Origin: SAR324 cluster bacterium
GTDB taxonomy: Bacteria > SAR324 > NAC60-12
NCBI GenBank assembly: GCA_029245725.1
Contig: JAQWOT010000148.1
Span: forward strand, 50,918-114,917
DNA: 64,000 nt
Direction of reading: 5' to 3'
The notes under the pieces are model-generated. The model worked only from the letters and a program-made list of their open reading frames with translations. It was not told the DNA's origin and made no database searches. Positions 3,192-16,193 of this stretch are shown here, piece after piece; within the stretch, counting starts at the first letter, position 1, and each line of letters begins with the position of its first letter. The position numbers and the translations under genes are program-made.

Positions 3192-4562
3192 TCACTTCAC
3201 ACGAAAAATGAGCATCGTTTGATCATCCTTAAGCGGTTCCGTTCCACGATAGTTCTCGATGGCAATCGAGATGTTATTGGCAACTTTCTGTGGAGAGTGA
3301 TCACTCCAAATTTGTAAAGACTTCGTCAACTGGTGCTTACCGAACAGCCTTGGATTTTCCCCTTCATTCATCACATCGGTGATGCCATCGGTGTACATCA
3401 CAAAGATCTGATCCTGCACAGGGATTAGGCTGGTTTTGAATGCATAATTGAGTGGCACTCGCACACTCCCTACAGATTTTCGGTCCCCCTTCAATTCCTC
3501 AACTTGCCCATCTCCGGAGATCACCAGCATACCGTTGCGGGCACTGGCGAATGAAAGTTCTTTCTGCTCACGATGGTAGATGCAGATACTGCCATCAAAA
3601 CCCTCATCTGAAGTCGATTCGGCTTTGTCATGCTGATTCAAAATGTTTTTGATCAATTGATGGACAGTGGTTAGGTATTGTCCTGCGCTCTTAACCGCTG
3701 GATCGTTCATCGCTCGGTCAAAAGCAGCACTCGTGATTGTGGACAGCAGCGCACCGGGAACCCCATGACCCGTGCAGTCCAACACAGCAATCACCACGTC
3801 ATCTCCAAGATCTTCCAGAATGTAGATATCGCCACCAACAATGTTCAGCGGCTTCCAGACAATACTCACATCCAGATCCGAAGGAATTTTCTTCGGCAGC
3901 AAAGCGTTCTGAATACGAGAAGCCGAGCGGATCGACTTATGAATCTCCTCACGGGCTTCCTCAACAAGTTGTCGTTGACGAGCCACTTCCTTGGTGAGGT
4001 TGTTGCTGAGCTTAGCCTTCAGATTGAGACGTGCGATTTGCTTACTCAGTTGCTGGACCTCGGCCAGAGCCAGAATTTTTTCGGTCACCATCTTGGCAAG
4101 CCCATTCAGTAACTCGATCTGCTCTGAAACTGGGCTGGTTTGAGGAGTGCCGCTGATGCCAAAGAGGGTTCCGATCGCTAGGCCTTCCGGATTGATCAGA
4201 GGCACCCCCACATAAAATCTGCGCTGGATCTCCAGATGGTTTTCAGTGCCATCATTTCGTTCGTCTTTCTCCCAATCCTCAATGACCAGGCTATCCAGCA
4301 TGTTCATAGTCAGATTGCAGATGGAGCCGGTCCTCGGAGTCTCTGTCTTGTTCAATCCGGCTTCAGCCAGGAAATGTTGCTTGGTCTCATCTAGAATTGA
4401 GATACCCGCTGCTTCTACACCCAGCAGGTTCTTGATCAACCCAGGCACAACCTGAATTTCACTTTTGCGCAACTTGTCCAGATTGCCAAGATTTGAGATC
4501 GACTCTAGGCGCTTGATTTCCTGCTGCTTGAGCAGTGCTGCCTGATCCAGTTCTGTTTCCAT
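3192..4562 (-). CDS. GAF domain + PP2C-type (SpoIIE/RsbU-like) serine/threonine phosphatase, SiaA-like partner-switch phosphatase
   Basis: N-terminal GAF-like region, a central coiled-coil linker and C-terminal PP2C motifs (GGDIYILED, VLDCTGHGVPGAL, MYTDGITD). No TM segments, so it is cytoplasmic. Confidence 0.8.
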   Translation of the reverse strand: METELDQAALLKQQEIKRLESISNLGNLDKLRKSEIQVVPGLIKNLLGVEAAGISILDETKQHFLAEAGLNKTETPRTGSICNLTMNMLDSLVIEDWEKDERNDGTENHLEIQRRFYVGVPLINPEGLAIGTLFGISGTPQTSPVSEQIELLNGLAKMVTEKILALAEVQQLSKQIARLNLKAKLSNNLTKEVARQRQLVEEAREEIHKSIRSASRIQNALLPKKIPSDLDVSIVWKPLNIVGGDIYILEDLGDDVVIAVLDCTGHGVPGALLSTITSAAFDRAMNDPAVKSAGQYLTTVHQLIKNILNQHDKAESTSDEGFDGSICIYHREQKELSFASARNGMLVISGDGQVEELKGDRKSVGSVRVPLNYAFKTSLIPVQDQIFVMYTDGITDVMNEGENPRLFGKHQLTKSLQIWSDHSPQKVANNISIAIENYRGTEPLKDDQTMLIFRVK

Positions 4563-4592
4563 AACCCTCTGAAGTACTCTAAATCATCTAGT

Positions 4593-5648
4593 TCAATTTC
4601 GGTTTTCTGTTGAATTCACAACAAGATGTCTCGCCTGCCGTAGTAAATCCTGAAGCGCCGCACTGACCTCTGGGGAGAGTTGGCTAGGATCAATCTCCAA
4701 GTCCAAACCTGGAGCATGAAGGGCTAAGGCCTGGGTGCGGTCCTGTTCAATACTCTCCTGGACCACATAGGTCTGGATCGGACGAGCAAAGCCCTTGACC
4801 TGGATTACCTCTTTGGGAACACAGTTGAAGTGATCCTGCACCAGCAACATTGTCTCCTCACTGATCAGCACCTCGCCTAGCTTGGCTGCTGATTCCAGTC
4901 TTGATGCCAAGTTGACGTGATTCCCGATCGCCGTGTAATCCAGCCGATTCTCAGAGCCGAAGTTCCCGACTGTGCAGATTCCCGAGTTGATCCCACAACG
5001 AATGCGGAAAGGACGAGAAACTCCCATTGTACGCAAGGTCACATTCAACTGATCCGTCTTGCTCTGCATCGCCATCGCCATCGCCACACAGCGGGTCGCA
5101 TCCTGTTGTGGGCCATCTGTCTCAGGATCGCCAAAGAAAGCCATCACCGCGTCACCGATGTACTTGTCGATGGTGGCACCATGAGAGATCGCTATCTGGG
5201 CCATCTCATTTAAGTAGGCATTGAGAGATCGAGTGAGGATTTCTGGTTCAAGCTGGTCAGTAATCTCCGTGAAGGAAGCAATATCTGAAAAGAAGACAGT
5301 CAGGAACTTGCGATCCGCTCCTACTCTTACTTCCGCTTTACCTGAAAAAATCGATTCGTAGACTTGGGGAGAGAGGTACTTGGAGAGCTTGACCGAGAGC
5401 GATTCCAGCTTCTCATTTTGATCACTGAGGGTAGCGTTGAGGAGAGATTGCTCATCTGAAAGGCGGCGAATTTCTGCTTCACTGCGATCCGACATCTTGA
5501 TCAGTCGGCGTGTGCGCTTGAGCAATTTTTCATAGCCCTTCAGCAGTGCTGAAAAAGCCTCTGGGGTCAGATCCTCTGCCTGAAGATGCTGCTCAGCCTG
5601 CTCGAGGATTTGTTTTTCCGTAGCAAAAAGGTCATTGCTCATAACCAT
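4593..5648 (-). CDS. class III adenylate/guanylate cyclase (CHD domain) with an N-terminal coiled-coil region
   Basis: CHD signature motifs FFSDIASFT, IGDAVMAFFG, RCGINSGICTVGNFG and NLASRLE. About 110 aa of coiled coil precede the catalytic domain. Start chosen at MVMSNDL; the ATG two codons downstream is also possible. Confidence 0.85.
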   Translation of the reverse strand: MVMSNDLFATEKQILEQAEQHLQAEDLTPEAFSALLKGYEKLLKRTRRLIKMSDRSEAEIRRLSDEQSLLNATLSDQNEKLESLSVKLSKYLSPQVYESIFSGKAEVRVGADRKFLTVFFSDIASFTEITDQLEPEILTRSLNAYLNEMAQIAISHGATIDKYIGDAVMAFFGDPETDGPQQDATRCVAMAMAMQSKTDQLNVTLRTMGVSRPFRIRCGINSGICTVGNFGSENRLDYTAIGNHVNLASRLESAAKLGEVLISEETMLLVQDHFNCVPKEVIQVKGFARPIQTYVVQESIEQDRTQALALHAPGLDLEIDPSQLSPEVSAALQDLLRQARHLVVNSTENRN

Positions 5649-5756
5649 TCCAACCCTAAAAAACCACACATAAGTTGATGCCTCAACACACCTAGTCCAT
5701 ATAAGACAGCATTCTCTCCTTCGTGTTTGCCATGATCATCGGCAAAACGATTCACA

Positions 5757-6284
5757 TCAACTGGAAGCTTCCTTGATCCAGACCTTGAAGACAAAGAGTA
5801 GTTCCATGGATCCCACAAAATCAAACTCGAATCGATCTGCTTTACGGGCCATTTCAATAAAACCCAAACCAGCTCCTTTGCTGCCCTCAGGTGGTCCATC
5901 ACGTAAGCGTTGCTTGTAGGCCTTGCGCAGCTCCTTGCTGTCCATCGCTTTCAATTCTGCCAAGTTCTGTCGGAGGTTCTCTACATTTTGCTCATCCATC
6001 GGGTTGATCGCTTCAACCAGGAAACCATCTTCAGCCCGGCTGATGGCAACCGTACCAGTCCCTCCAGTGGCAATCCGTTCCTTGGAGTAGCGAATCACGT
6101 TCTGGGCTTGCTCAACAAAGATGCCAAAGACTCGCTTGGTGATTTCAGCATCATCCTCCATCTCGTTCACCTGCTCACGGACAATGCCAGAAAAAGTCGA
6201 CAGCACGTCCTCAGAAAGGAGTCCGGAGTAGCAGAAGAAGGTTCTACGCTGTTCTAGCAGTTTATGGAAATCCTGAGACTGCAT
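5757..6284 (-). CDS. SiaB-like small protein kinase (GHKL-like ATP-binding fold, RsbW-type partner-switch kinase)
   Basis: 175 aa, soluble, with a G2-box-like GAGLGF motif and an N-box-like EQAQNVIRY. It sits between the DUF1987 gene and the cyclase, as siaB does in siaABCD. Assignment from motif plus context; family membership not verified. Confidence 0.5.
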   Translation of the reverse strand: MQSQDFHKLLEQRRTFFCYSGLLSEDVLSTFSGIVREQVNEMEDDAEITKRVFGIFVEQAQNVIRYSKERIATGGTGTVAISRAEDGFLVEAINPMDEQNVENLRQNLAELKAMDSKELRKAYKQRLRDGPPEGSKGAGLGFIEMARKADRFEFDFVGSMELLFVFKVWIKEASS

Positions 6285-6307
6285 GGAAACTCTCTCTTGG
6301 GGTTGGT

Positions 6308-6667
6308 TCAGATTTCGACGATTTGATATTGCGCGTGTTCGAAGTCTTCCTCGAAGTCCTCTCCAGCTTCCTGCATGGAACTATCATCAGCCCGGTAGCA
6401 CCAATCAATGGAGATCTGCTTGCCTGATTCGGCGGCCTCCTCCAATTCCTCAAAGAAATCAAAGAGGAATTTTGCAGAGGAGCTGTTGAAGTAATAGAGT
6501 TCAATCCGCACCTGAAAGGATTCCACACTTTCTAACTGGTCTCTCAAGGCTTGCATCACCGGCTCTGCAAACGCGGTGATGTCTTCCGGATAGCACTCGC
6601 CCTTCATTTCTATCCCTGTTAAAGATACCGAGACCGCCGGGGTACGATTCGTCGCGTCTAGCTGCAT
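6308..6667 (-). CDS. DUF1987 / SiaC-like phospho-acceptor regulatory protein (STAS-like)
   Basis: 119 aa from the internal start MQLDATN. Motifs GECYPED, YYFNSSS (Ser cluster matching the SiaC phospho-Thr position), FLFDFFEELEE and ISIDWCY fit the SiaC/DUF1987 pattern. The ORF track extends it upstream to 6751 using an earlier ATG. Confidence 0.65.
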   Translation of the reverse strand: MQLDATNRTPAVSVSLTGIEMKGECYPEDITAFAEPVMQALRDQLESVESFQVRIELYYFNSSSAKFLFDFFEELEEAAESGKQISIDWCYRADDSSMQEAGEDFEEDFEHAQYQIVEI

Positions 6668-6899
6668 ACAATCACTCCAAATTCTGGATGGTTTTTCTGC
6701 TTCGTGCTTCTTGTAGGTAGCCTTTGATAAAATAGCAAACCCTAGTTGCAAATGGCAGCTTGATGAGTTTAATTTTTTGATTTCTCAAGCAATCAAGGTT
6801 TGGTCACCACGTTAGTTGACTGCCTTAGCAGGCTGTTGGATTGTCGCTCACTTGGCTTTATTACAGAAGCAGAATTTCGAAGGGTTTTGGGGAATCGTT

Positions 6900-7013: not shown

Positions 7014-8651
7014 CTATTCCATAAAATTACAGTTGACTTGAGCAGAATTCGGGACCCAATTACAACTCTCAGAGATGACATTAATTGGATTGCACGCTGT
7101 AAGCTGAAGGCTAACGCTGCCAAAGTAGTCCCAGTTATCAACATTGAGGATAGTTTCCACGTAACCACTTTGATTAACCGTTGCATTGATCAAAACTGGT
7201 TTGATGGATTCTTGAAGTTCTTGTGGGGGATTGATGGCCCAGTATGTACTCAACGAGGCAATATCATCATCAGAGACCGTACCCCTCACAGCAATCGTAT
7301 TTTCACTGGTTGGTACCAGTGAAATAGACAGGATAATCGGATCGAATTGCACTGAGACACCATCAGAAAACTCACACAAAATATTTTGGACAGCGTTAAA
7401 GGCTTGTTGGTTTAATTCGTCGAATTCAGAAAGCAGGGCTTCTTCAACAACCTGATCATTATTTGGAAGTAATTCCACAAGACCGGCTGTTAAACCAGTT
7501 AGCTGTAAATTCAGAGCAAGCTTGCTTTCCTCAGTCAAAATTCTAGAGATTTCGGGATTACTGAGAGTTTCATCCACAGCTTGACCGACCAGTGAAGGGA
7601 GATCTTCCGAGATAGATCTTTCCCCACCTTGAGCTAATTTATTTGCAAGGATTGACAATGCGCTGAATTGTTGTTGAGTGCTCTGTATGATTGGGTTTGA
7701 GCCACCTACCAACAACATCCAATAGGCCTCTGTCACCTTGGCAAGTTTCAAAAGTGCTCCTGGAATTCCTTGCGGAGAAGCAATATCTGCACGCCAGTCT
7801 CCACTCTGCGCAAAGATGCTTTCTAGAGCAGGATCTGCTGTAACCAGAGTAGTCAGTGGAGTGATATGCACTTCTATTTGTCTATCCTCAGGTAGCGTGG
7901 CCAACATGGGGGCAGCTGGAATATAAACACCTGAAGCTCCGAGTCTGACCCCCCCTACTGTAGTAAGGACATAGTCAAGATAGTCTGGTGCTAAATCGTA
8001 TTCGCCAACTGGACCAGAAATAGTAAAATTTTCATCTTCATCCAACTTCTGATTTATGCTTCCATCTGGCTCAATCCGATCTGCCCAGACATTTGCTCCC
8101 ATCACATAGTTTTGGGCTAGCCTTCCAGACAATTGACGGGCCAATTGAATAGAAAGTATTGAGGATCTCTCGCCATTGATTATCAAGGTGCTTTCCGTAT
8201 TAGAAACAGAGAAAACCTCACTTTTACCGAAATCAATTGGATTTAAGAGTGGTGATTGCCCAAGCAGCCACTGCTCCAGTTCAAAGGACGTGTGATTTTC
8301 CTGGAAACGGTAGATGAATAGGTAGAGTTTTTCATTGGTTGGGAGGAGCAGTGAAACCGTGTTGTCAAGAGTCTTGACCCTATTCCAATCTAGGACATCA
8401 CTCAAGTCAGGGCCGTGTTCAGAAAATTCTGTCCTGGTCCGCACAACGACTGCCAATTCCGAACCTCTGGTTTCCGTTCCACTTCGGCTTAATTTTGAAG
8501 GGGCACTGGATTGAAGACTCAGGTGAAGTTTCACCCAACTATTTTCTATTTCTTTTGGAAGTTCACCACAGGAGTATAGGAGGAATGCAAGTGTCCAAGT
8601 TAGCAAATACAAGATCACTCTGTCGAGTGATCTTAAGACTTGAGGGACCAT
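7014..8651 (-). CDS. lipoprotein of unknown function (paralog A of a tandem pair)
   Basis: Signal peptide with lipobox LLYSC. Shares long blocks with the 8786..10021 product (GANVWADR / GAQVWFDRF; AAPMLATLPEDRQ...ITPLTTLV / AAPMLAPLPSEGQ...ITPLTTLV; SGDWRADIAS / LGDWNSDIAAS; FDPIILSISL / FDPIISKITL). Confidence 0.7.
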   Translation of the reverse strand: MVPQVLRSLDRVILYLLTWTLAFLLYSCGELPKEIENSWVKLHLSLQSSAPSKLSRSGTETRGSELAVVVRTRTEFSEHGPDLSDVLDWNRVKTLDNTVSLLLPTNEKLYLFIYRFQENHTSFELEQWLLGQSPLLNPIDFGKSEVFSVSNTESTLIINGERSSILSIQLARQLSGRLAQNYVMGANVWADRIEPDGSINQKLDEDENFTISGPVGEYDLAPDYLDYVLTTVGGVRLGASGVYIPAAPMLATLPEDRQIEVHITPLTTLVTADPALESIFAQSGDWRADIASPQGIPGALLKLAKVTEAYWMLLVGGSNPIIQSTQQQFSALSILANKLAQGGERSISEDLPSLVGQAVDETLSNPEISRILTEESKLALNLQLTGLTAGLVELLPNNDQVVEEALLSEFDELNQQAFNAVQNILCEFSDGVSVQFDPIILSISLVPTSENTIAVRGTVSDDDIASLSTYWAINPPQELQESIKPVLINATVNQSGYVETILNVDNWDYFGSVSLQLTACNPINVISESCNWVPNSAQVNCNFME

Positions 8652-8785
8652 GAAGGTGGGTCATTTAGCAAGTGACAGAAATTCAAACAAATTCCATGGA
8701 TCCATTATTGAAATCATTCGCTGAGAAATTTACAAATTGTCAGATTTATTCATGTTATTACAAGTGCAGTATTCTTGATATACTC

Positions 8786-10021
8786 TCATCTGCTAAGATA
8801 ATCACAAATCGTCGGATTACTCCCGTTATCCCAGGTGCAGTATTCAGTGACACTAGTCTCTCTGTCATCTGTAACTCGCCAAATGACTGTGAGACTGGAG
8901 TTATCGAAGTTTCCCAAGCGGGAGTTTGCTGAAAAGCGATCAACCAAATTTAACGCAGGACTTGTATCCCAACGATATGAAAGTGTGCTGGGTCGTTCAT
9001 CTGAAGCTTCTCCTGAGATATATAAAGTACCGTCTGTCAATTGAAGAGTAATTTTGGAAATTATTGGATCAAATTCAAGGCCGAATCCACCAATTGAAAT
9101 TGTTACCTGCTGATCAAGTTCATTCTCAATCGCTGCCTTGATCTCCGTTCGTTTTTTTTCAATCTCACTCACCACTTCACTTTCAACCACTTGTCCTGAT
9201 TCAGGAATTGCATTTGTGATTGAAGTCACCAGGGAATTCATTGAATCTCTAATTTCATTTTTTACATTTCCGCCCAAAGGGTTCACCAGAGTTTGATCTT
9301 CCAGAATTAGATCAAGAGCGGTTGTGCTTGCCTGGACCAGCGAGTCTGTGGATGTCAGCTCTTCTGAAGGCAAAGTGGACAATTGACTTGCGAAAATCTC
9401 TATGGAACGAAGCTGAGCTGATTGATTCAATGCAATCGAACCCTCCCCTTGCCCCAGCATTCCCGCAAGCCCCTCTACAGTCTTTGCAATGCGGAGAAGA
9501 GGTGCTGATGTCCCTGTAGATGCCGCTATGTCACTGTTCCAGTCTCCTAAAGACTGCAGAGTCTCCTTCAACTCAGGTTCATAAGCCACTAGAGTGGTTA
9601 GAGGTGTGATGTTGGTCACTGCTTGTCCTTCGCTTGGTAGAGGAGCGAGCATCGGCGCTGCCTCTACCTTTTGGCCTGCTGCGTCCAAATAAGTACCTCC
9701 AATAGACATCAGGACTCCTTCACCGGCACCGACCGTTAAGGTATAAGATCCATCATTCCCTGATGTTGTATCTGGCTCACCAGGGTCACGCTGAAAATTT
9801 CCAGTACCGTCTGCTGAGAAACGGTCAAACCAGACTTGGGCGCCTCCCACATAGCCTTGTGCCAACTTACCTTGGACTTTAACAGAGGTAGCTGAGTTTG
9901 ACTCATTTTCCTCTGCTTTACTGCTTGAACCACCACCACCTCCGCCACCACATCCAAGGGAACTCAGCAGACAAATTAGAGAGGCTCCAAGTATTATGTT
10001 ATTGAGCTGCCGTTTCATCAT
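8786..10021 (-). CDS. lipoprotein of unknown function (paralog B), Gly-rich linker after the lipobox
   Basis: Signal peptide with lipobox SSLGC followed by a GGGGGGGSS linker. Paralogous to 7014..8651. Overlaps the stop of the upstream giant lipoprotein by 23 nt. Confidence 0.7.
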   Translation of the reverse strand: MMKRQLNNIILGASLICLLSSLGCGGGGGGGSSSKAEENESNSATSVKVQGKLAQGYVGGAQVWFDRFSADGTGNFQRDPGEPDTTSGNDGSYTLTVGAGEGVLMSIGGTYLDAAGQKVEAAPMLAPLPSEGQAVTNITPLTTLVAYEPELKETLQSLGDWNSDIAASTGTSAPLLRIAKTVEGLAGMLGQGEGSIALNQSAQLRSIEIFASQLSTLPSEELTSTDSLVQASTTALDLILEDQTLVNPLGGNVKNEIRDSMNSLVTSITNAIPESGQVVESEVVSEIEKKRTEIKAAIENELDQQVTISIGGFGLEFDPIISKITLQLTDGTLYISGEASDERPSTLSYRWDTSPALNLVDRFSANSRLGNFDNSSLTVIWRVTDDRETSVTEYCTWDNGSNPTICDYLSR

Positions 10022-12665
10022 AGTAACTGAATATGTAGAATACTCCTACACCACCAGTGACATAGGCGAAATAATAATCATTAGGTTCAGTGAGTGCTGG
10101 AAGCCCAGTGTAGTACTTGACGGTTGTGTTGTAATTCTCATCTTCACGCGCAGTGGTTTTGACACCACTATTAGTGGGATGAATTATTGTATTGATGTCA
10201 GAAGATTTCCTCAGCGTAAAATTGATATTAGGATCAGTCGAAGTGGTTTCAACTGTAATTGAATCAGGAGCTGTGACATTCAATCTAAACGAGTCAGCAT
10301 CTTCCTCATAGAGATAGGACGCTCTACTCTTTCCACTAGGTAAGGGGAGAACAAATTCTCTATTATCATCAGCAACAAATGCTAATCCTGTTGTTAGGTC
10401 ACAAATTATATTGCCGTAGGTTGGAAGTATTGTGTTTAAATCACAGGCAACATTGGAAAAGGTTGTTCCACTCGCTTTATCAAACCAAGTAGTACTGAGA
10501 TCTGCACCAGTCATTGAAATATTGGCTAAACTTGTTGAAACAAAACTCGTCCCAATCAAATTTGTATCAGCAAAAGAGCCCCCTGAAATAGTGCTTTCGA
10601 CAACATCATTATTTTGAAACTGACCTGTAGCAGTCATTCCATTAAAAGTTGAGTGATAAATTAGGTTTTCGTTCATCTGAAGGTTTATGAACATGGAGTT
10701 TTGTATATCAAGCTTGGCCGTTAAACCTGTCAGGGTCAAATTTGAACCTTCTGTCCCTAAAAAAGCTAAATTTGTGTATGGTAAGTTCTGGGTAGTGGGC
10801 GAGTAATCCTCAGGTGAAAATACTGCATCATTGACTGTTGAATCTCTGAAAGTTGTGTTGTAGATCAAAGAATTGATGAATTGTGATCCATCAAAAACAG
10901 AGTTACTAATTTCAACATTTCTCAGGTTAGCACCCTGAAAATTTACATTTGTGAAACTGACATCATCCAAAAAGCTATTTTCAAGCGTAGCATATTTTAA
11001 GTAGCCTCCTTGAAGAATTGCTTTTGTGCCAGGATCTCCAATGCTCCAAGTACCACGATCAAAATATTTTGATTGGAATCCAAGAGCACCGTCTCCATCA
11101 TAGTCACTCCAAGTATGATAATGGCGCCAAACAACTGGTTCGTTTGGATTAGCTATGTTTTGCAAGTCACAATGGTTACAAATACCATCCACTAACAATG
11201 TTCGCCAATTATCCCACGGCAGACTGTTTTTTGGCTTACCGTAAGCTGGCAAAGGATATTCTGAAGCATAAACAAATCCAGTGGATCTATGTACAAAATT
11301 TAATCTCAGATTAGCCGAATAGAGGTCATTCTTATCTATTAGCCCAGAAACTGTTTTCTCAGTTCTTCCATCATCAGTATTTGTAATTTTCAGATAAGGA
11401 GCAGGGAACCCAAGTGGTGTAACTTCCTGGTAATCTAAGTTTGCATAAATCTCTATTTCACTAGACAAGCCCTGAATCTCAAAATCGTAGTATAAATCTG
11501 CGCTATCTGGTGTCATTTCGTATATTAAAGAGATATTATTCAAAGTTGGCATAAAAACTATTTGACTACTTTGGTCAATTGTATCGCCGAAGATATCAAA
11601 GGTGATTTGATTACTTAAACCCAGAGCTTCTGATTTTGTCGAATCTCTTTGGCTAAGTGTGATACTTACACTGAGCTGTACGGGTGGATTTGCAGGTAGT
11701 TGAAATGTCCCTGCAGTGTAATTTTGGACAATCTTACCAGTATTAGAGACACACCAATTTGGATCAGCATCTTTTTCTGCTTGCGAAAGAACAGGGCAAA
11801 CTCTTATCAGATCATTTTCGCCTTTTTCTGCAAATGTAATCGTACCAAATACGTCTTCACACATCCCTTGGTCTCTCGCCTCTGTTGTACAAGTTCCTGT
11901 GACTGTTCCATTGAGTTCGATCAGGTACCCTTGGGGTCCTTTAAACTCAACAATGAAGTTTAGGTTTTGACTTGCTGAATACCTATCGGGTCGATCAATT
12001 TTGGAGATATATGGTATGGCACCAAATCTTGCTTCAGGCTTTAGAATCGGCATCATACGTAGCTGCAAGGGATTCGTGCCGGCTTGAATTTGAAAAGTAT
12101 CAACAGATCCCTCAAAAAGATTTACTGTGAAGTATGTGTTGTCTCCATCGTTATAAGGGGCACTTCCCTCAGCTTTGGGTTCATAGTCGTAGTATGACCG
12201 CCAGCAGCTCCAGAATAGAGTTTCTTGAAATGGAGCTGTAACATCAATTTGCTCCCGACAATCTGATATTTCTGCTTCAGTTGGTGCATCATACGCGACA
12301 GCAGCAAAATCGTAATTTGCTCCAGGAATCACTTTCTCCAACGTACCCACCCAAGCTGAAGTAGGAGTTAAGTCTGCACCAAAGCCGGTAGTCACCAACT
12401 GTAGTTCAATTGTGTCAGTCACCCCCAGTCCATCACTTCTACCATAGGTTAAACTGACCCCAGTCACCTCAAGATAAGTGCCAATATAGCGGCCAGTTTT
12501 GGTCGGCAGTTCCCCAAGAATCACAGTCACGGCTTGTGACTCAGGTTGTTGCTCAACAGATCCTTCCTGCTGGTTGCCATGATCCACACAACTACTCAAC
12601 AGGAGCGTCAGCAGAAAAACGATCGGCCCGATCAGTGTGCGGTGCTTCTTGTTAACTGATTGCAT
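9999..12665 (-). CDS. large (about 888 aa) surface lipoprotein with a pentapeptide-repeat domain
   Basis: Start at MQSVNKKHRTLIGPIVFLLTLLLSSC (lipobox LLSSC). A beta-rich N-terminal region of about 550 aa, then pentapeptide repeats (FTNVNFQGANLRNVEISNSVFDGSQFINSLIYNTTFRDSTVNDAVF..., continuing for about 170 aa). Confidence 0.75.
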   Translation of the reverse strand: MQSVNKKHRTLIGPIVFLLTLLLSSCVDHGNQQEGSVEQQPESQAVTVILGELPTKTGRYIGTYLEVTGVSLTYGRSDGLGVTDTIELQLVTTGFGADLTPTSAWVGTLEKVIPGANYDFAAVAYDAPTEAEISDCREQIDVTAPFQETLFWSCWRSYYDYEPKAEGSAPYNDGDNTYFTVNLFEGSVDTFQIQAGTNPLQLRMMPILKPEARFGAIPYISKIDRPDRYSASQNLNFIVEFKGPQGYLIELNGTVTGTCTTEARDQGMCEDVFGTITFAEKGENDLIRVCPVLSQAEKDADPNWCVSNTGKIVQNYTAGTFQLPANPPVQLSVSITLSQRDSTKSEALGLSNQITFDIFGDTIDQSSQIVFMPTLNNISLIYEMTPDSADLYYDFEIQGLSSEIEIYANLDYQEVTPLGFPAPYLKITNTDDGRTEKTVSGLIDKNDLYSANLRLNFVHRSTGFVYASEYPLPAYGKPKNSLPWDNWRTLLVDGICNHCDLQNIANPNEPVVWRHYHTWSDYDGDGALGFQSKYFDRGTWSIGDPGTKAILQGGYLKYATLENSFLDDVSFTNVNFQGANLRNVEISNSVFDGSQFINSLIYNTTFRDSTVNDAVFSPEDYSPTTQNLPYTNLAFLGTEGSNLTLTGLTAKLDIQNSMFINLQMNENLIYHSTFNGMTATGQFQNNDVVESTISGGSFADTNLIGTSFVSTSLANISMTGADLSTTWFDKASGTTFSNVACDLNTILPTYGNIICDLTTGLAFVADDNREFVLPLPSGKSRASYLYEEDADSFRLNVTAPDSITVETTSTDPNINFTLRKSSDINTIIHPTNSGVKTTAREDENYNTTVKYYTGLPALTEPNDYYFAYVTGGVGVFYIFSYYDETAAQ

Positions 12666-12804
12666 CTCACATCTCTTTTCAAGGGGTTTTTTCTCATTTA
12701 TAAGAAACAATAAAATTCAACTAGATGATTGGTTTGCTTACAACAATATCCTTGCCAAAGCAATTTATTTCACTCCTTATTGAAAAATATTGGGATTTGA
12801 TCTG

Positions 12805-13272
12805 TTACTCCACCAACCTGCGTTCAATTCGGCTCTTGGATACCAGACAAAGCATGTAGAGGATGATTCCGTAAAAAAGCGTGATGAGTGAAATTGCGAC
12901 AGCTGGGAAGAGGGTGTCCTGGCTGAGAACACTCTCCATCTCACGGAGTATCAGGATTGCTCCCAAAAAGGTTCCCAGAATTCCCCAGATCAAGGAAAGG
13001 TTCCAAAGATCTCGCAGACACAACCTCGTGGGCTCCAATTGGCTTTTATCGATGTTCTTGACACTGCCCAGCAGAGCTTTCTAGCTATTGCCGTAGCTCT
13101 TCCAGCCATGCACAGAGATCGTGTAGTAGATGGTGGGCAAGACAACAATGATCAGTGAAGGAATATCGAGGACATACTGGATTTTTTCTGGCATCAGCGC
13201 CAAACGCATGAAATCAAACGTACAGGCAATGAAGATCAGCGCGAACCCAAGCAAATGAGCGATTACCATCAT
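12805..13272 (-). pseudogene. small polytopic membrane protein, with an MotA/TolQ/ExbB-like LGTFLGAILIL helix, interrupted by an in-frame TAG
   Basis: ORFs 13081..13272 and 12805..13038 are in the same frame, separated only by a TAG at 13081-13083. The downstream part has no ATG (TTG only). The joined product is about 155 aa with four predicted TM helices. Confidence 0.4.
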
Positions 13273-13306: not shown

Positions 13307-13600
13307 TTATTGCTCCTGCACTACTGGACCCGAGATGGGGTCCGTTACTCCAAGTTCAGGGCTGATCTCCTCCAGCATGTGCCGGACACTATCCAGAAAG
13401 CCGACCATCGCAGGACGTGCATTGATCAGGGACTCCTGGTTGTCCCACTCGCCGACAGAACAATAGGTGAGCTCTCCTGTTTGGATCAGCCTACCCATCT
13501 GGTATCCAGACGGTCTTTCGAATTCAGCAAATTTACTGACGATCACGTCTTTAAATTCTGGTTTCACACGAAACCGGACGACGTTCATATATTTCGACAA
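13307..13600 (-). CDS. ABM (antibiotic biosynthesis monooxygenase)-like / dimeric alpha+beta barrel protein
   Basis: 97 aa. MNVVRFRVKPEF...ELTYCSVGEWDNQESL pattern resembles the ABM domain. Weak assignment. Confidence 0.45.
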   Translation of the reverse strand: MSKYMNVVRFRVKPEFKDVIVSKFAEFERPSGYQMGRLIQTGELTYCSVGEWDNQESLINARPAMVGFLDSVRHMLEEISPELGVTDPISGPVVQEQ

Positions 13601-13722
13601 CGTTGTCTCCTAAATGCAGGGACGTCAAAGCCCATTGACATATTCTGTAAATCCAGCTCCCATCGCACCAAACATTTCCTTATCCCACCCGAAAAAGCTT
13701 AATATTTGATTAAACGATAAAA

Positions 13723-14058
13723 TCATTTAGTGGGCGCCTGATATCCACTAGACACATCACGCGCCATCGTACAGGCCTTAACCCAGTCTTCAACCGAGAG
13801 CAACTGGATCGTATTGATTCTTGAGCATCCACCAGATGACGCAACTTGAGCCGCAATTGCTGCAGCTGCAACATCATCTGGAAGTTCACAAATTACAATC
13901 GCGTCATCTTCCCCAAAAGCCATCAGGAAGTGAAGCATCTTTCCACCAAAGGTTTCACAGGCCTTGGCGATCATTCCAGATCGGTCAGTTGGATTCTCAA
14001 CCATCGCTTTGATAGAAGCCGACGTGTACGTCGCTTTGTACATGTAGAGTGACATCAT
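13723..14058 (-). CDS. GYD domain protein
   Basis: 111 aa. Y.Y.ATYT...ETFGGKMLHF...GEDDAIVICELPDD..AAAA pattern typical of the GYD family. C-terminal tail SSGYQAPTK. Confidence 0.65.
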   Translation of the reverse strand: MMSLYMYKATYTSASIKAMVENPTDRSGMIAKACETFGGKMLHFLMAFGEDDAIVICELPDDVAAAAIAAQVASSGGCSRINTIQLLSVEDWVKACTMARDVSSGYQAPTK

Positions 14059-14118
14059 TCTCCCTGTTTATGTTGATAGACGGAAACCAATCGACACTAC
14101 AGTCGATTGGTTTATCCA

Positions 14119-14397
14119 TTATTTATTCGGTGCCTGGTACGCAGAAACCACTTTATTAGCAGTTTCCATCGCGGAAGTCATCGATTTGGAATCAATGACT
14201 TCAATCCCTTCAAATCTGGTAAAAGTTCCTGTAGACATCGTTACCATTTCCTCAGCTGTCATACTTTCTGTGTTGCTTTCTGCAATCACTACAATCTCTG
14301 CAGTACTCACACTAAAATAGACACTTTGCATATCGACTCCAACTGCGGCAAAGAGTTTACGAGCAGCAGCTTCTCGGTCTTGTGGGCTATCCACCAT
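14119..14397 (-). CDS. GYD-like domain protein
   Basis: 92 aa. Similar C-terminal architecture and tail VSAYQAPNK, as in the neighbouring GYD proteins. Confidence 0.45.
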   Translation of the reverse strand: MVDSPQDREAAARKLFAAVGVDMQSVYFSVSTAEIVVIAESNTESMTAEEMVTMSTGTFTRFEGIEVIDSKSMTSAMETANKVVSAYQAPNK

Positions 14398-14471
14398 TCC
14401 TTTAAATGCTACATTGCTGTACTTTCCTCTGACAAGATATAAAGATATCTTTTACTCCAAATTAGTAATGA

Positions 14472-14927
14472 TTAGTTATCTATTTTATAGCAATCGTAAG
14501 AAACCTTTCCTGGAGACAACTTACCTTTTGCTACACAAAACAGATTATTTAAGTACTTATACTTTTCTGAAGAAGTTTGCATTCTTGGATTAGTGAATGC
14601 GTAATGATCACCATATTCTGTAGAAATCTCTCCGGCAAGTGCTTTTTGGGTTTTTTCATTAATTACCCAACGACCTGTATACTCTAAATAGATAAGAGCC
14701 CCATCATCAGTTTCTAATGTTAGTCTGACATCTAAAACTAGGCATCCAGAATCATTAATTGTGCCCCACTCTCCACCCATAGAATTTCGCACTATACCTT
14801 GAATACTCGGACCTTTGAATGTTCCACCTGCAGTTTCAATAAACATTCTGTGACCAGTAGGTAAATCTCCCATATCATATGAATGCGGTAGATTAACTGT
14901 CATCTCAAAAAGTTTTTCAAAATTCAT
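14472..14927 (-). CDS. DUF3237-like small beta-barrel protein (tentative)
   Basis: 151 aa. GDLPTGHRMFIETAGGTFKGP...LETDDGALIYLEY pattern recalled for DUF3237. Not verified. Confidence 0.45.
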   Translation of the reverse strand: MNFEKLFEMTVNLPHSYDMGDLPTGHRMFIETAGGTFKGPSIQGIVRNSMGGEWGTINDSGCLVLDVRLTLETDDGALIYLEYTGRWVINEKTQKALAGEISTEYGDHYAFTNPRMQTSSEKYKYLNNLFCVAKGKLSPGKVSYDCYKIDN

Positions 14928-14953
14928 CTTAAGATACTCCTTTTTATACCAAT

Positions 14954-15283
14954 TTAGGACTCTTTGCCGGGGGCTTTATAAACTCCAGAAAACTTGTTCA
15001 TTGTGCCAATAATTGTGTCCAAATCCACAACTGGATAGAACATGATCTCTTCGAACACACCAGACATCTGAATCACCTGCTTCAGTCCCAGAGCTGTTGA
15101 CCAATCAGGCACTTCCATCGTCACACAGACATCCAAGTCTCCTCCCAGAAAATCACAATCAATCAGCTTGGAATCAATTTGAGAGGCCATCCCCTCAATT
15201 TGCTTTACACGGGCTACGTAGCTTGAATCTTTCATTCCTTTGACAGCATCTTCTGAATAGACTCCCAAAATCTTTATTTTCAT
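14954..15283 (-). CDS. GYD-like domain protein
   Basis: 109 aa, C-terminal tail SGVYKAPGKES. Similar size and composition to the other GYD paralogs. Confidence 0.5.
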   Translation of the reverse strand: MKIKILGVYSEDAVKGMKDSSYVARVKQIEGMASQIDSKLIDCDFLGGDLDVCVTMEVPDWSTALGLKQVIQMSGVFEEIMFYPVVDLDTIIGTMNKFSGVYKAPGKES

Positions 15284-15373
15284 ATTTCTCCTTTGCGGAT
15301 GATGAAGCTCTCACTAGCAAGAAAATTAGTGAGAGCTGGTTAATCTGTTATTGTGAGGACTTCTTTATTAGTC

Positions 15374-15778
15374 TTAAGCCCAGTGCCAAATCTCCCACTT
15401 GGCATTTCCGCTTGGATCTACATCCCACTCGTAAATCATTGCTTTGCCATTGAGGCTCATGAGTGAAGGAGCAGTGGTTTCGAAGTAGCAGGCACCGCGG
15501 AATTTAGAGCCACCATCTTCCGTCATTCCACCTGATCCAGTCGCTCGGAAAGTAGCCACTCCGTCAGCAGCCATCACAATACCTGAATTTGGCAATTCTC
15601 CGTACATACTGCCATCTGCCCGCATTTCCGCATAGTAGGTCGACATTGTTTGAACCTGGACACCTGCCAATGTTCCGCTCCCTTGAACAGCCACCTCAAA
15701 CTTGGGTAAGGTGCCCTGGGTGGGGAGGACTTTGTTTGCTGCAGTACAGGTCATCGATCCCATCTTTTCACCTAACAT
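15374..15778 (-). CDS. hypothetical protein (Gly/Thr-rich, predicted beta-rich)
   Basis: 134-aa ORF with coding-like composition and no recognisable motif. Start uncertain (MGSM is an alternative). Confidence 0.45.
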   Translation of the reverse strand: MLGEKMGSMTCTAANKVLPTQGTLPKFEVAVQGSGTLAGVQVQTMSTYYAEMRADGSMYGELPNSGIVMAADGVATFRATGSGGMTEDGGSKFRGACYFETTAPSLMSLNGKAMIYEWDVDPSGNAKWEIWHWA

Positions 15779-15845
15779 AAGAATCTCCTTGGTTTGTATG
15801 AATCAATCGTTTTCAAGCACATATTAGATAGTGCTCTCAGGCAAT

Positions 15846-16193
15846 CTAGTCTGCCATACTCCCAACCACTTCTCCATGCATGATCATTCCCACGGAATAG
15901 TTTGCAATCACCTTTTCCAACATGACTCCAATGTCTTGCCAACCTGCTGAACTTTCCATGTGTGCCTGGCTTCCTTCTAGACCACGGTAGACCTCAGTCA
16001 ATGCCATCATTGTATGACCAGTTGTACCTTCAGAAGGGTCCAAAGGATTTTTCAATTCCGAGGCTTTTGAGATCGTGTAGACCAAAGGGCTAGGCTCAGC
16101 CGGCCCCTGGTGGGTTGCCCGCATCCACTTCTCATGACTGGTAGCCAGAATGGCTTCCACTTCTGGCACTTCGGCGTCGGGTACACGAAACAT
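15846..16193 (-). CDS. hypothetical protein
   Basis: ORF from MFRVPDAEV, about 115 aa. No recognisable motif. Confidence 0.4.
   Translation of the reverse strand: MFRVPDAEVPEVEAILATSHEKWMRATHQGPAEPSPLVYTISKASELKNPLDPSEGTTGHTMMALTEVYRGLEGSQAHMESSAGWQDIGVMLEKVIANYSVGMIMHGEVVGSMAD

Follow-up and report, generated by a model that had tools for sequence, protein, structure and literature searches.

A recurrent three-gene lipoprotein cassette of deep-ocean SAR324 that may encode a surface-exposed binding complex with an exchangeable head

Three minus-strand open reading frames at positions 7014-12665 of a 64,000-nucleotide stretch of SAR324 DNA (the window), which we call A (888 aa), B (411 aa) and C (545 aa), are a previously undescribed, recurrent cassette in deep-ocean SAR324. 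Judged by its sequence, A is a member of an unannotated lipoprotein family that combines a shared N-terminal Ig-like module (the N-module) with interchangeable heads, and B and C are a second unannotated family, built of a beta-sandwich, a five-helix bundle and a PKD-like domain. The real constant of the system is the N-module paired with B-family lipoproteins, not the pentapeptide repeat. We give about an even chance to the view that the cassette forms an outer-membrane, probably surface-exposed, binding complex, for which adhesion or surface binding would be the most plausible role. The features of the locus are as follows:

12717-12804, no strand: upstream edge of the hypervariable island, from blastn HSP boundaries
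9999-12665, minus strand: gene A, 888-aa lipoprotein, the 'variable-head' component; the ORF spans 9999-12710, with the ATG at 12665
12588-12665, minus strand: A signal peptide and lipobox LLSSC (Cys26), from a rule-based check, followed by an acidic/polar linker
11982-12536, minus strand: A residues 44-228, Ig-like N-module, common to large lipoproteins adjoining B-like genes in other lineages
11631-12011, minus strand: A residues 219-345, second Ig-like beta-sandwich, AlphaFold pLDDT about 70-84
11226-11630, minus strand: A residues 346-480, third domain, beta-rich; domain-wise identity shows good conservation within the A family
10446-11021, minus strand: A residues 549-740, pentapeptide-repeat right-handed quadrilateral beta-helix
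10002-10388, minus strand: A residues 760-888, C-terminal beta-sandwich, AlphaFold pLDDT about 70-87
8786-10021, minus strand: gene B, ORF for a 411-aa lipoprotein, founding member here of the B family
9641-9883, minus strand: B residues 47-127, beta-sandwich of the carboxypeptidase-regulatory or transthyretin-like type, motif GKLAQGYVxGAxVW.D
9110-9604, minus strand: B residues 140-304, five-helix bundle
8801-9064, minus strand: B residues 320-407, PKD/Ig-like C-terminal domain with a conserved Cys pair (395/406)
7014-8651, minus strand: gene C, ORF for a 545-aa lipoprotein, whose orthologues follow B in all SAR324-type loci
8136-8567, minus strand: C residues 29-172, beta-rich N-terminal extension of ~145 aa
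6819-7013, no strand: downstream edge of the island, from blastn HSP boundaries

The 888-aa form of A is an exact match to MDG2196627.1 at NCBI, annotated as 'pentapeptide repeat-containing protein' in a SAR324 cluster MAG, and B is MDG2196626.1 of the same MAG. The G+C content of gene A is 40.5%, compared with 47.5% for the whole window. A and B overlap by 23 nt (9999-10021); because 134 nt lie between B and C, an earlier note on this DNA was fully right to call the genes tightly packed only for the first two. All three proteins, with lipoboxes LLSSC in A, SSLGC (Cys24) in B and LLYSC (Cys28) in C, pass a PROSITE PS51257-style rule that we coded for this analysis. In alignments, S25 and C26 are invariant within the A family, and the lipobox cysteine hardly varies in the B family or among 50 N-module proteins. 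A poly-Gly/Ser linker follows Cys24 of B, and Asp at +2 is absent in A, B and C. Each mature protein has an even cysteine count and the beta-helix of A is bracketed by conserved Cys pairs (496/499 and 741/755), which, together with the lipoprotein signals, fits an oxidising extracytoplasmic compartment. A, B and C thus look like lipoproteins and are very probably extracytoplasmic, and the earlier observation of three lipoprotein genes at this position was confirmed in every part.

The N-module of A, which had no Pfam match and is modelled by AlphaFold with low confidence, carries the motif GRY[LI]GTYxEVxGVxLxY ... W.G ... Y.F.A.AY ... LF.G ... L.LRM.P ... IPYISKIDRP and, in its SAR324 type, a Cys-containing insertion at A residues 128-180. 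Two conserved Cys pairs (259/269 and 290/305) lie in the second Ig-like domain, and the third has the consensus F.PVI ... VSDD ... L ... W (alignment A5). A profile of B also picks up some N-module proteins, by their third domain, and A residues 346-480 may be the counterpart, by position, of a PKD-like third domain common to the B C terminus and other N-module proteins. The pentapeptide-repeat region noted earlier is present as a beta-helix of about 38 pentapeptides (~190 aa), with one loop at 618-629 and a pI of about 4.05. Residues 760-888 are a candidate PPC-like (pre-peptidase C-terminal) domain, with a weak Pfam PPC match below the cut-off (E 0.029). Homologues of A fall into 11 clusters at 39-92% identity.

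A search of 1.84e9 representatives with an N-module HMM (A residues 44-228) retrieved 135 clusters at E<=1e-3 and 51 at E<=1e-10, and we take the family size as about 135 clusters at 50% identity. The matches are almost always N-terminal, right after the lipid-anchored cysteine, in proteins mostly of 300-1666 aa; many of the shorter matches are fragments. Heads among 50 long members are diverse: RCC1 propellers (8), NHL (4), SBBP (3), Big_5 (3), Laminin_G_3 (2) and pentapeptide repeats (2), with Kelch, C-type lectin, DUF285, EPTP, Lcl_C and others occurring once each. At B-linked loci they are pentapeptide repeats, Big_5, RCC1 (three times), DUF285 or unknown. By their predicted folds, these heads are binding or scaffold domains, not enzymes. 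The pentapeptide repeat, whose fusion to a large surface lipoprotein the earlier note called unusual, is present in A but is just one of the many heads that the conserved N-module can carry.

The paralogy of B and C seen earlier is borne out by BLASTP (33% identity over 309 aa, E 2e-44). The lack of an assignable motif also holds: neither protein had a match in Pfam, NCBIfam, PADLOC or PHROGs. Homologues of the B family fall into 132 clusters, nearly all from marine metagenomes. B is modelled at a pLDDT of 85.9, and C corresponds to the B-family core over residues about 173-545 (B-profile match E 6e-126). Conservation in the family peaks in the five-helix bundle, in the motifs NITPLTTLV, GDWNxDIA and LLRIAKTVE, and such extreme conservation of the helical region is expected for a protein-protein interface held constant while heads change.

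Reading outward from B-family genes, we surveyed 97 loci in 30 dereplicated groups and found an N-module gene within about 840 nt of the B-family gene or genes in 17 of them; the other 13 give too short a flank for a verdict, with all their contigs ending within about 2.1 kb of the B genes on one side or both. This near-obligate adjacency comes in several gene orders (N>B>C, B>N, N>B>B and B>C with a divergent N), so the link between the N-module and B is more than inherited synteny. No other neighbours were conserved across lineages in the comparison of B-family loci. At least six dereplicated SAR324-like groups have a pentapeptide-repeat A followed by B and then C, and the edges of the island described below coincide with the trio, in agreement with the earlier suggestion that the three genes are a unit. 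Adjacency alone is not proof of an A-B-C complex.

Compared with SAR324 relatives, the flanks of the cassette are mostly 89-97% identical at the protein level, whereas A is 39-41%, B 53-57% and C 60-72% identical. The flanks have a dS of 0.3-1.2, mostly 0.4-0.8; for A and B, dS is at or close to saturation (five of six comparisons give no defined value and the sixth gives 3.5), as in a replacement-type island. The dN/dS ratio against the closest relative is 0.21-0.23 in the cassette and 0.03-0.12 in the flanks, well below 1, so a direct signal of positive selection is absent. At the downstream edge, blastn identity to relatives drops from 86-89% on the SiaC side to 67-76% in gene C. No nucleotide similarity was detectable by blastn across gene A, and relatives align again, at 81-85%, from about 12780-12803, the end of the MotA/ExbB-like gene. 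These boundaries enclose exactly A, B and C, with the gene for the MotA/ExbB-like membrane protein on one side and a SiaC / DUF6272 / PP2C / cyclase signalling module on the other. Two loci, L001 and L033, carry a relic copy of the upstream-boundary sequence downstream of gene C. The island pattern shows old alleles and recombination and is silent on their cause. According to PMC4033161, replacement islands such as this usually code for exposed structures.

We propose that Sec would export A, B and C, that each would receive its lipid at the lipobox cysteine, and that sorting would probably place them in the outer membrane. One component would be A, lipid-anchored, with an N-module conserved across many marine lineages and a distal exchangeable binding head, which in the SAR324 copy would consist of the extra Ig-like domains, the disulfide-capped pentapeptide-repeat beta-helix and the C-terminal beta-sandwich. 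The paralogues B and C would be its conserved partner, probably binding the N-module and holding A as a stalk, with the variable head facing outward as a ligand- or particle-binding surface. Whole-cassette alleles would be swapped by recombination between otherwise near-identical SAR324 genomes, and very old divergent alleles would be kept in the population because the structure is exposed, probably to phages, grazers or niche-specific ligands.

Several observations bear on which way such a complex would face. The SAR324 cassette encodes no outer-membrane translocator; in Proteobacteria-like diderms the lipoproteins of the outer membrane mostly point into the periplasm, and it is there that BamB and other beta-propeller lipoproteins act. 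An unlikely reading, though one that deserves weight, is a periplasm-facing envelope complex, embedded in the outer membrane or lying against its inner face and serving envelope homeostasis or stress sensing with a YjbI-like role for the pentapeptide repeats. It would suit the position between the MotA/ExbB-like gene and the signalling module, although these signalling neighbours are conserved only within SAR324-type synteny. JGI annotates A-cluster members as 'YjbI with pentapeptide repeats', and an extracytoplasmic beta-helix with two flanking conserved Cys pairs is one of three conserved YjbI features (PMC12864828). However, propellers, lectins and Ig domains replace the pentapeptide-repeat head in homologous cassettes, so the shared function cannot depend on the chemistry of the repeat. 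Moreover, A, unlike YjbI, ends in a ~130-aa beta-sandwich after the beta-helix, and A, B and C are the most divergent genes of their syntenic region, a place not normally taken by housekeeping envelope factors. Scarcely credible is a DNA mimic of the Qnr/MfpA/AlbG kind that protects topoisomerases, or the DNA mimicry at the surface raised by the earlier note. NCBIfam scores were far below cut-off for Qnr (20.9 against 240) and MfpA (17.7 against 360), and we rejected this candidate. Gyrase is cytoplasmic, and the repeats, as part of an 888-aa lipoprotein that starts with a signal peptide, sit between disulfide-type Cys pairs, a topology that effectively refutes the idea; acidity is the same in mature A, B and C and so does not single out the beta-helix of A. 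Of the earlier interpretation, the three-gene unit and its lipoproteins stand, but DNA mimicry and the repeat as the defining feature do not.

Self/non-self (kin) recognition or a contact-dependent module, in which polymorphic A, B and C mediate homotypic recognition or aggregation of SAR324, would account for ancient, highly divergent alleles between conserved flanks and for an architecture rich in Ig, PKD and lectin-type domains. The adjoining Sia-like module (Pfam matches) is presumably related to a system controlling aggregation in Pseudomonas, and hypervariable Ig-protein gene modules have been proposed for self/non-self recognition (PMC8416519). The logic would resemble that of these modules and of polymorphic surface receptors. 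We nevertheless hold this to be quite improbable: profile searches including Pfam and NCBIfam detected no toxin, immunity or exchange machinery, the RCC1/NHL propeller and C-type lectin heads suggest heterotypic ligands, and the reading overlaps surface display, differing only in the ligand. We are just as doubtful that these are three co-located, functionally independent lipoproteins, linked only by co-regulation or shared PKD-like ancestry and forming no complex. The PKD-like domain common to B, C and many N-module proteins means that part of the clustering could be local duplication, and the gap between B and C fits independence. Against it, the N-module gene and B adjoin in every one of the 17 groups in which an N-module gene is seen, although gene order, orientation and head vary, the island encloses only this trio, and an N-module kept across unrelated heads calls for a constant partner. 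An outer-membrane binding complex is the reading that we prefer.

Among known systems, Qnr, MfpA and AlbG have the same fold as the beta-helix of A; each of these is a separate cytoplasmic protein of about 200 aa, dimeric in the case of MfpA and Qnr, whereas A is exported and fails the NCBIfam cut-offs. The YjbI-type secreted pentapeptide-repeat proteins include Caulobacter crescentus YjbI and the orthologue Rfr32 (PDB 2G0Y). Caulobacter YjbI, a modulator of outer-membrane composition that silences envelope-stress two-component systems, is small and stand-alone, with a charged C-terminal tail required for function; in A the helix is internal to a large lipoprotein, precedes a beta-sandwich and is swappable with non-pentapeptide heads. 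The surface lipoprotein assemblies of Bacteroidota (SusE/F-type, BtuG and the utilisome) likewise have a lipid anchor and an N-terminal Ig-like stalk followed by binding domains, and are encoded in cassettes with partner proteins, with propeller-type heads in BtuG. This likeness is a functional analogy only: profile and structure comparisons found no sequence or whole-chain structural relationship, neighbour-gene annotation shows no TonB-dependent transporter or SusD-like gene in the cassette, and the organisms are not Bacteroidota. The Thermococcales module (PMC8416519) pairs a large hypervariable Ig-domain protein with variable partners and is proposed for conflict or self-recognition; it is archaeal and of other architecture, and homology is not expected. 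The replacement flexible genomic islands of aquatic prokaryotes (Lopez-Perez et al. 2014, PMC4033161) share with the SAR324 island a constant position, conserved flanks, very divergent content and excess synonymous divergence; they are tied to exposed structures, as the SAR324 island would be. Classical replacement islands hold glycosylation/O-antigen clusters, flagellin or pilin, or giant proteins, whereas that of SAR324 holds a compact three-gene lipoprotein cassette of unknown families.

Three adjacent minus-strand genes, A, B and C, which together we call the cassette, occupy positions 7014-12665 of the window:

9999-12665, minus strand, gene A, an open reading frame (ORF) of 888 aa counted from its ATG
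8786-10021, minus strand, gene B, an ORF of 411 aa (MDG2196626.1, annotated 'hypothetical')
7014-8651, minus strand, gene C, an ORF of 545 aa

By these ORF calls, A and B share 23 nt, and 134 nt lie between B and C. A TTG at 12710 would allow a longer frame for A. Counted from the ATG, the 888-aa protein exactly matches MDG2196627.1 from a SAR324 cluster MAG, and the N termini of homologues agree with its start. All three proteins begin with a basic n-region and a hydrophobic stretch followed by a lipobox (LLSSC, SSLGC and LLYSC, respectively). The earlier note's proposal that each carries a lipobox signal peptide held when we applied a regular-expression implementation of a PROSITE PS51257-type lipoprotein rule (positive n-region, hydrophobic h-region, lipobox [LIVMFWSTAG]2-[LIVMFYSTAGCQ]-[AGS]-C, cysteine at about position 15-35), which was passed by A at C26, by B at C24 and by C at C28. 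The residue at +2 is valine in A and glycine in B and C. Many members of the B family, which comprises B, C and their relatives, have a near-canonical lipobox that fails the strict pattern, yet retain the cysteine followed by poly-glycine. The mature proteins contain even numbers of cysteines (10 in A, 2 in B and 4 in C), and the pairs in A are conserved among its homologues, with C496/C499 and C741/C755, which bracket the repeat region, invariant in 12 homologues. Even numbers and conserved pairing are expected for disulfide-bonded extracytoplasmic proteins, and A, B and C show extracytoplasmic hallmarks. Scans for promoters and terminators gave no signal above shuffled expectation, and neither RNA families nor tRNAs were found in the window. 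The G+C content of A is 40.5%, compared with 47.5% for the window.

Pfam identified pentapeptide repeats in A (PF00805, 39.6 bits against a cut-off of 20.2) and in all 12 members of the A family, and a PDB profile search with A matched pentapeptide-repeat proteins (PRPs). In an AlphaFold model of A (mean pLDDT 64, rising to ~80-95 across most of residues 549-740), residues 549-740 form a right-handed quadrilateral beta-helix of ~38 pentapeptides with a single loop at 618-629, in agreement with Foldseek; three beta-rich Ig-like regions are predicted to precede the helix and a ~130-aa beta-sandwich to follow it. The Ig-like region just past the lipid-anchored cysteine (residues 44-228), which we call the N-module, is modelled at low confidence. 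Domain-wise Pfam searches at E<=10 added only a weak match of the C terminus to PPC (PF04151, E 0.029, 15.7 bits against a cut-off of 25.9). The model of B, built from 36 homologues, reached a pLDDT of 85.9 and contains a beta-sandwich (residues 47-127), a five-helix bundle (residues 140-304), in which most of the invariant residues of the family are located, and a C terminus that may be PKD/Ig-like (PF18911 or PF22352 in Pfam). No whole-chain match for B was found among solved structures, and a PDB sequence-profile search with the B family returned nothing meaningful. C consists of the B-family core preceded by a ~145-aa beta-rich extension and is 33% identical to B (E 2e-44), which bears out the paralogy proposed in the earlier note. 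B and C were also said there to lack any assignable motif, and neither matched a family in Pfam, NCBIfam, PADLOC or PHROGs.

Large lipoproteins adjoining B-like genes in unrelated loci have an N-terminal module in common with A and differ in the remainder, which we call the head. The module starts shortly past the lipid-anchored cysteine, bears the motif GRY[LI]GTYxEVxGVxLxY ... W.G ... Y.F.A.AY ... LF.G ... L.LRM.P ... IP.I.KI.RP and has no family in Pfam. A word-indexed homology search with the N-module alignment recovered only nine fragments, so an exhaustive search was needed: an HMM run against 1.84 billion representatives found 135 clusters at E<=1e-3, 51 of them at E<=1e-10. Nearly all matches lie at the N terminus of proteins that are mostly 300-1666 aa long, and many of the shorter matches are fragments. 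The lipobox cysteine is nearly invariant in 50 long members. Among these 50, Pfam recognised RCC1 propellers (8), NHL (4), SBBP (3), Big_5 (3), Laminin_G_3 (2) and pentapeptide repeats (2, A included), as well as Kelch, C-type lectin, DUF285, EPTP, Lcl_C, Flg_new_2 and polysaccharide deacetylase heads (one each). N-module proteins have modular heads, and the pentapeptide repeat is one among many.

Homologues of B formed 132 clusters, almost all marine-metagenomic, with SAR324, Cellvibrionales and 'Proteobacteria' as the named sources. Profile-guided scans located 13 loci in species genomes (SAR324, uncultured proteobacteria, Deltaproteobacteria NP72 and Desulfobacterales) and 80 in metagenomes. 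We called ORFs in 97 loci, searched them with HMMs of both families and dereplicated them at 85% identity into 30 groups. A gene encoding an N-module protein (N gene) lay within ~840 nt of the B-family gene or genes in 17 of these; in the other 13, which include L096 and L097 with 1.7 kb downstream, all contigs extend less than ~2.1 kb on at least one side of the B genes. The SAR324 type, to which the window belongs, is ordered N>B>C; other loci have this order with a divergent RCC1-type N gene added after C, or else B>N (at times with two or three successive N genes), N>B>B or B>B>N. Heads in these B-linked loci were of PRP, Big_5, RCC1, DUF285 or unknown type, and no further neighbour common to different lineages was found. 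The N-module and the B family are two previously unannotated families that, viewed from the B-family loci, are near-obligately adjacent. The PRP-type trio occurs in at least six dereplicated groups, contrary to the outcome, never co-occurring elsewhere, that the earlier note had named as refuting the unit. A literature search found no earlier description of the cassette.

Several loci show further features. A second PRP-type N gene follows C in L026 (2936-5740), and three successive N genes, two of them RCC1-type, lie downstream of one B gene in L046 (1687-7499), which suggests head arrays served by one B partner. In B>N loci, B is preceded by an extra conserved gene (L007 745-1704, L088 8574-9794, L089 8309-9424 and L084 1-978). 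Its product has no Pfam match and begins with a signal peptide, continues with a long, charged linker of low complexity and ends in a ~180-aa C-terminal region with many alternating aromatic and polar residues. This region looks like a small outer-membrane beta-barrel; should it be one, it would link the cassette to the outer membrane. Very large proteins of 630-1897 aa (L013 4330-10020, L017 1341-6248, L012 and L014-L016) from Pseudogemmobacter, Loktanella, Marinobacter, Francisella-like, Campylobacterales and Planctomycetota genomes also contain the N-terminal beta-sandwich of B (GKLAQGYV.GA.V), which therefore represents a wider, unannotated domain.

We compared the window with three syntenic SAR324 relatives, L001, L033 and L034.

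Protein identity and synonymous divergence (dS) relative to L001, L033 and L034
Flanking genes: identity mostly 89-97%; dS 0.3-1.2, mostly 0.4-0.8
A: identity 39-41%; dS saturated (undefined, or 3.5 versus L034)
B: identity 53-57%; dS saturated (undefined)
C: identity 60-72%; dS 1.0-2.7

The less conserved flanking genes are orf97 and a GYD gene (81-88%) and the DUF3237 and GFA genes (~58-65%). Nucleotide alignment with the relatives runs at 81-91% up to ~6818 and resumes from ~12780-12803; between ~6818 and ~12780, C aligned at 67-76%, B only in patches of 66% and A not at all. All domains of A have diverged, most of all the Cys-rich insertion, the second Ig-like domain and the linker that precedes the helix. 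Relative to the closest relative, L018 (~90% identity), simple pairwise NG86 estimates put dN/dS at 0.21-0.23 in the three cassette genes and at 0.03-0.12 in the flanking genes. Right after C, L001 contains a degenerate 76-nt direct copy (15794-15869) of the 3' end of the MotA-like gene upstream of the cassette, 81.6% identical to window 12809-12884, and L033 retains a 28-nt relic of the same end just downstream of C (11800-11827, 93%), so that the cassette is bracketed by a repeat in both; the window itself has no detectable copy of this kind. These relics are consistent with the cassette being exchanged whole. It behaves as a hypervariable replacement island, and such islands are described as typically encoding exposed, phage-targeted structures (PMC4033161).

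The genes on either side of the cassette are as follows:

3192-4562, minus strand, SpoIIE/PP2C phosphatase
4593-5669, minus strand, class III adenylate/guanylate cyclase, in place of a diguanylate cyclase
5757-6284, minus strand, DUF6272 protein that may correspond to SiaB
6308-6751, minus strand, SiaC, downstream of C
12805-13272, minus strand, small MotA/ExbB-like membrane protein, directly upstream of A
13723-14058 and 14119-14397, minus strand, GYD-domain paralogues
14472-14927, minus strand, DUF3237 protein (65%, unusually divergent compared with its neighbours)

The first four (3192-6751) form a Sia-like partner-switching module, whose conservation beside the cassette is confined to SAR324 relatives. 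The MotA/ExbB-like protein is 154-155 aa long in relatives (Pfam MotA_ExbB, E 4.8e-7 for the L001 orthologue). The window copy, otherwise 92-95% identical to them, has an in-frame TAG at 13081-13083 where all relatives encode tryptophan (GNS*KALL versus GNSWKALL); the gene could be a pseudogene or polymorphic here, or the stop could stem from an error in sequencing or assembly. Further upstream, a run of small genes (13307-15778, minus strand) that includes the GYD paralogues, the DUF3237 gene and small ORFs without a family is also present in SAR324 relatives. We considered the MotA/ExbB-like, SiaC, DUF6272, PP2C and cyclase genes as further members of the cassette and rejected them because their co-occurrence with it is limited to SAR324-type synteny.

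The reading that we prefer, with confidence evenly balanced, is that A, B and C are putative outer-membrane lipoproteins: B and C would bind the conserved N-module, the head would be displayed outward and bind some ligand, and exposure would both maintain old alleles and drive their exchange. Its main rival, a periplasm-facing envelope role, is possible though doubtful; the helix of A resembles those of YjbI-type secreted PRPs in its secretion signal and two flanking cysteine pairs, but A is missing the essential C-terminal tail of YjbI, and the replacement of the PRP by propellers or lectins argues against PRP-specific chemistry as the shared function. Kin recognition, which amounts to surface display with a homotypic ligand, seems unlikely, and so, to the same degree, do independent lipoproteins with no common function, which the adjacency statistics disfavour. 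DNA mimicry, which the earlier note raised as a possibility at the surface, or gyrase protection is so improbable that we rejected it, given a topology in which the helix lies behind a lipoprotein signal and NCBIfam scores far under the cut-offs. An origin from a prophage or defence system was also rejected: no PADLOC profile matched A, B or C, PHROG matches of the three proteins were confined to generic PRP regions of A, and scanning viral contigs with the B family turned up no relatives.

Surface display of an exchangeable head can be extended to a more specific proposal, which we advance only tentatively and consider rather improbable: that the B family is a dedicated docking, possibly surface-translocation, partner of modular lipoproteins recognised through the N-module. 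It may constitute an undescribed display system of marine diderms (SAR324 and gamma- and delta-proteobacteria-like lineages), in which recombination swaps the heads; swapping of PRP helices, propellers and lectins may then be how populations respond to pressure from phages or grazers, or to the diversity of particles and ligands.

SAR324 is uncultured and ranks among the dark ocean's most abundant bacterial lineages; its cell surface is, to our knowledge, almost uncharacterized. What had appeared to be an isolated oddity, a pentapeptide-repeat lipoprotein, becomes two definable and so far unannotated families in strict genomic partnership, and the N-module and the B-family core offer curators two new domain families. 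The logic of the cassette is a conserved stalk with an exchangeable head, and its population genetics bear the mark of an exposed structure. If the preferred reading is true, it would offer a way into how bacteria of the SAR324 type bind to particles, prey, hosts or phages. It would also point to a candidate phage-receptor locus in SAR324 and add a further example of an extracytoplasmic pentapeptide-repeat helix with a structural or binding role in place of DNA mimicry.

Among known systems, Qnr and MfpA are cytoplasmic, stand-alone proteins of ~200 aa, whereas the helix of A is embedded within an 888-aa protein that carries a signal peptide and lipobox, and A scores only 20.9 bits against a cut-off of 240 and 17.7 bits against 360 with their NCBIfam equivalogs (NF033086 and NF000349, respectively). 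YjbI-type secreted PRPs are characterized by a secretion signal, two conserved cysteine pairs around the beta-helix and a charged C-terminal tail that spans the outer membrane (PMC12864828). Instead of this tail, A ends in the modelled beta-sandwich; like the YjbI type, it carries a secretion signal, in the form of a lipoprotein-type signal peptide by the rule-based check, and cysteine pairs on either side of the helix that may form disulfides.
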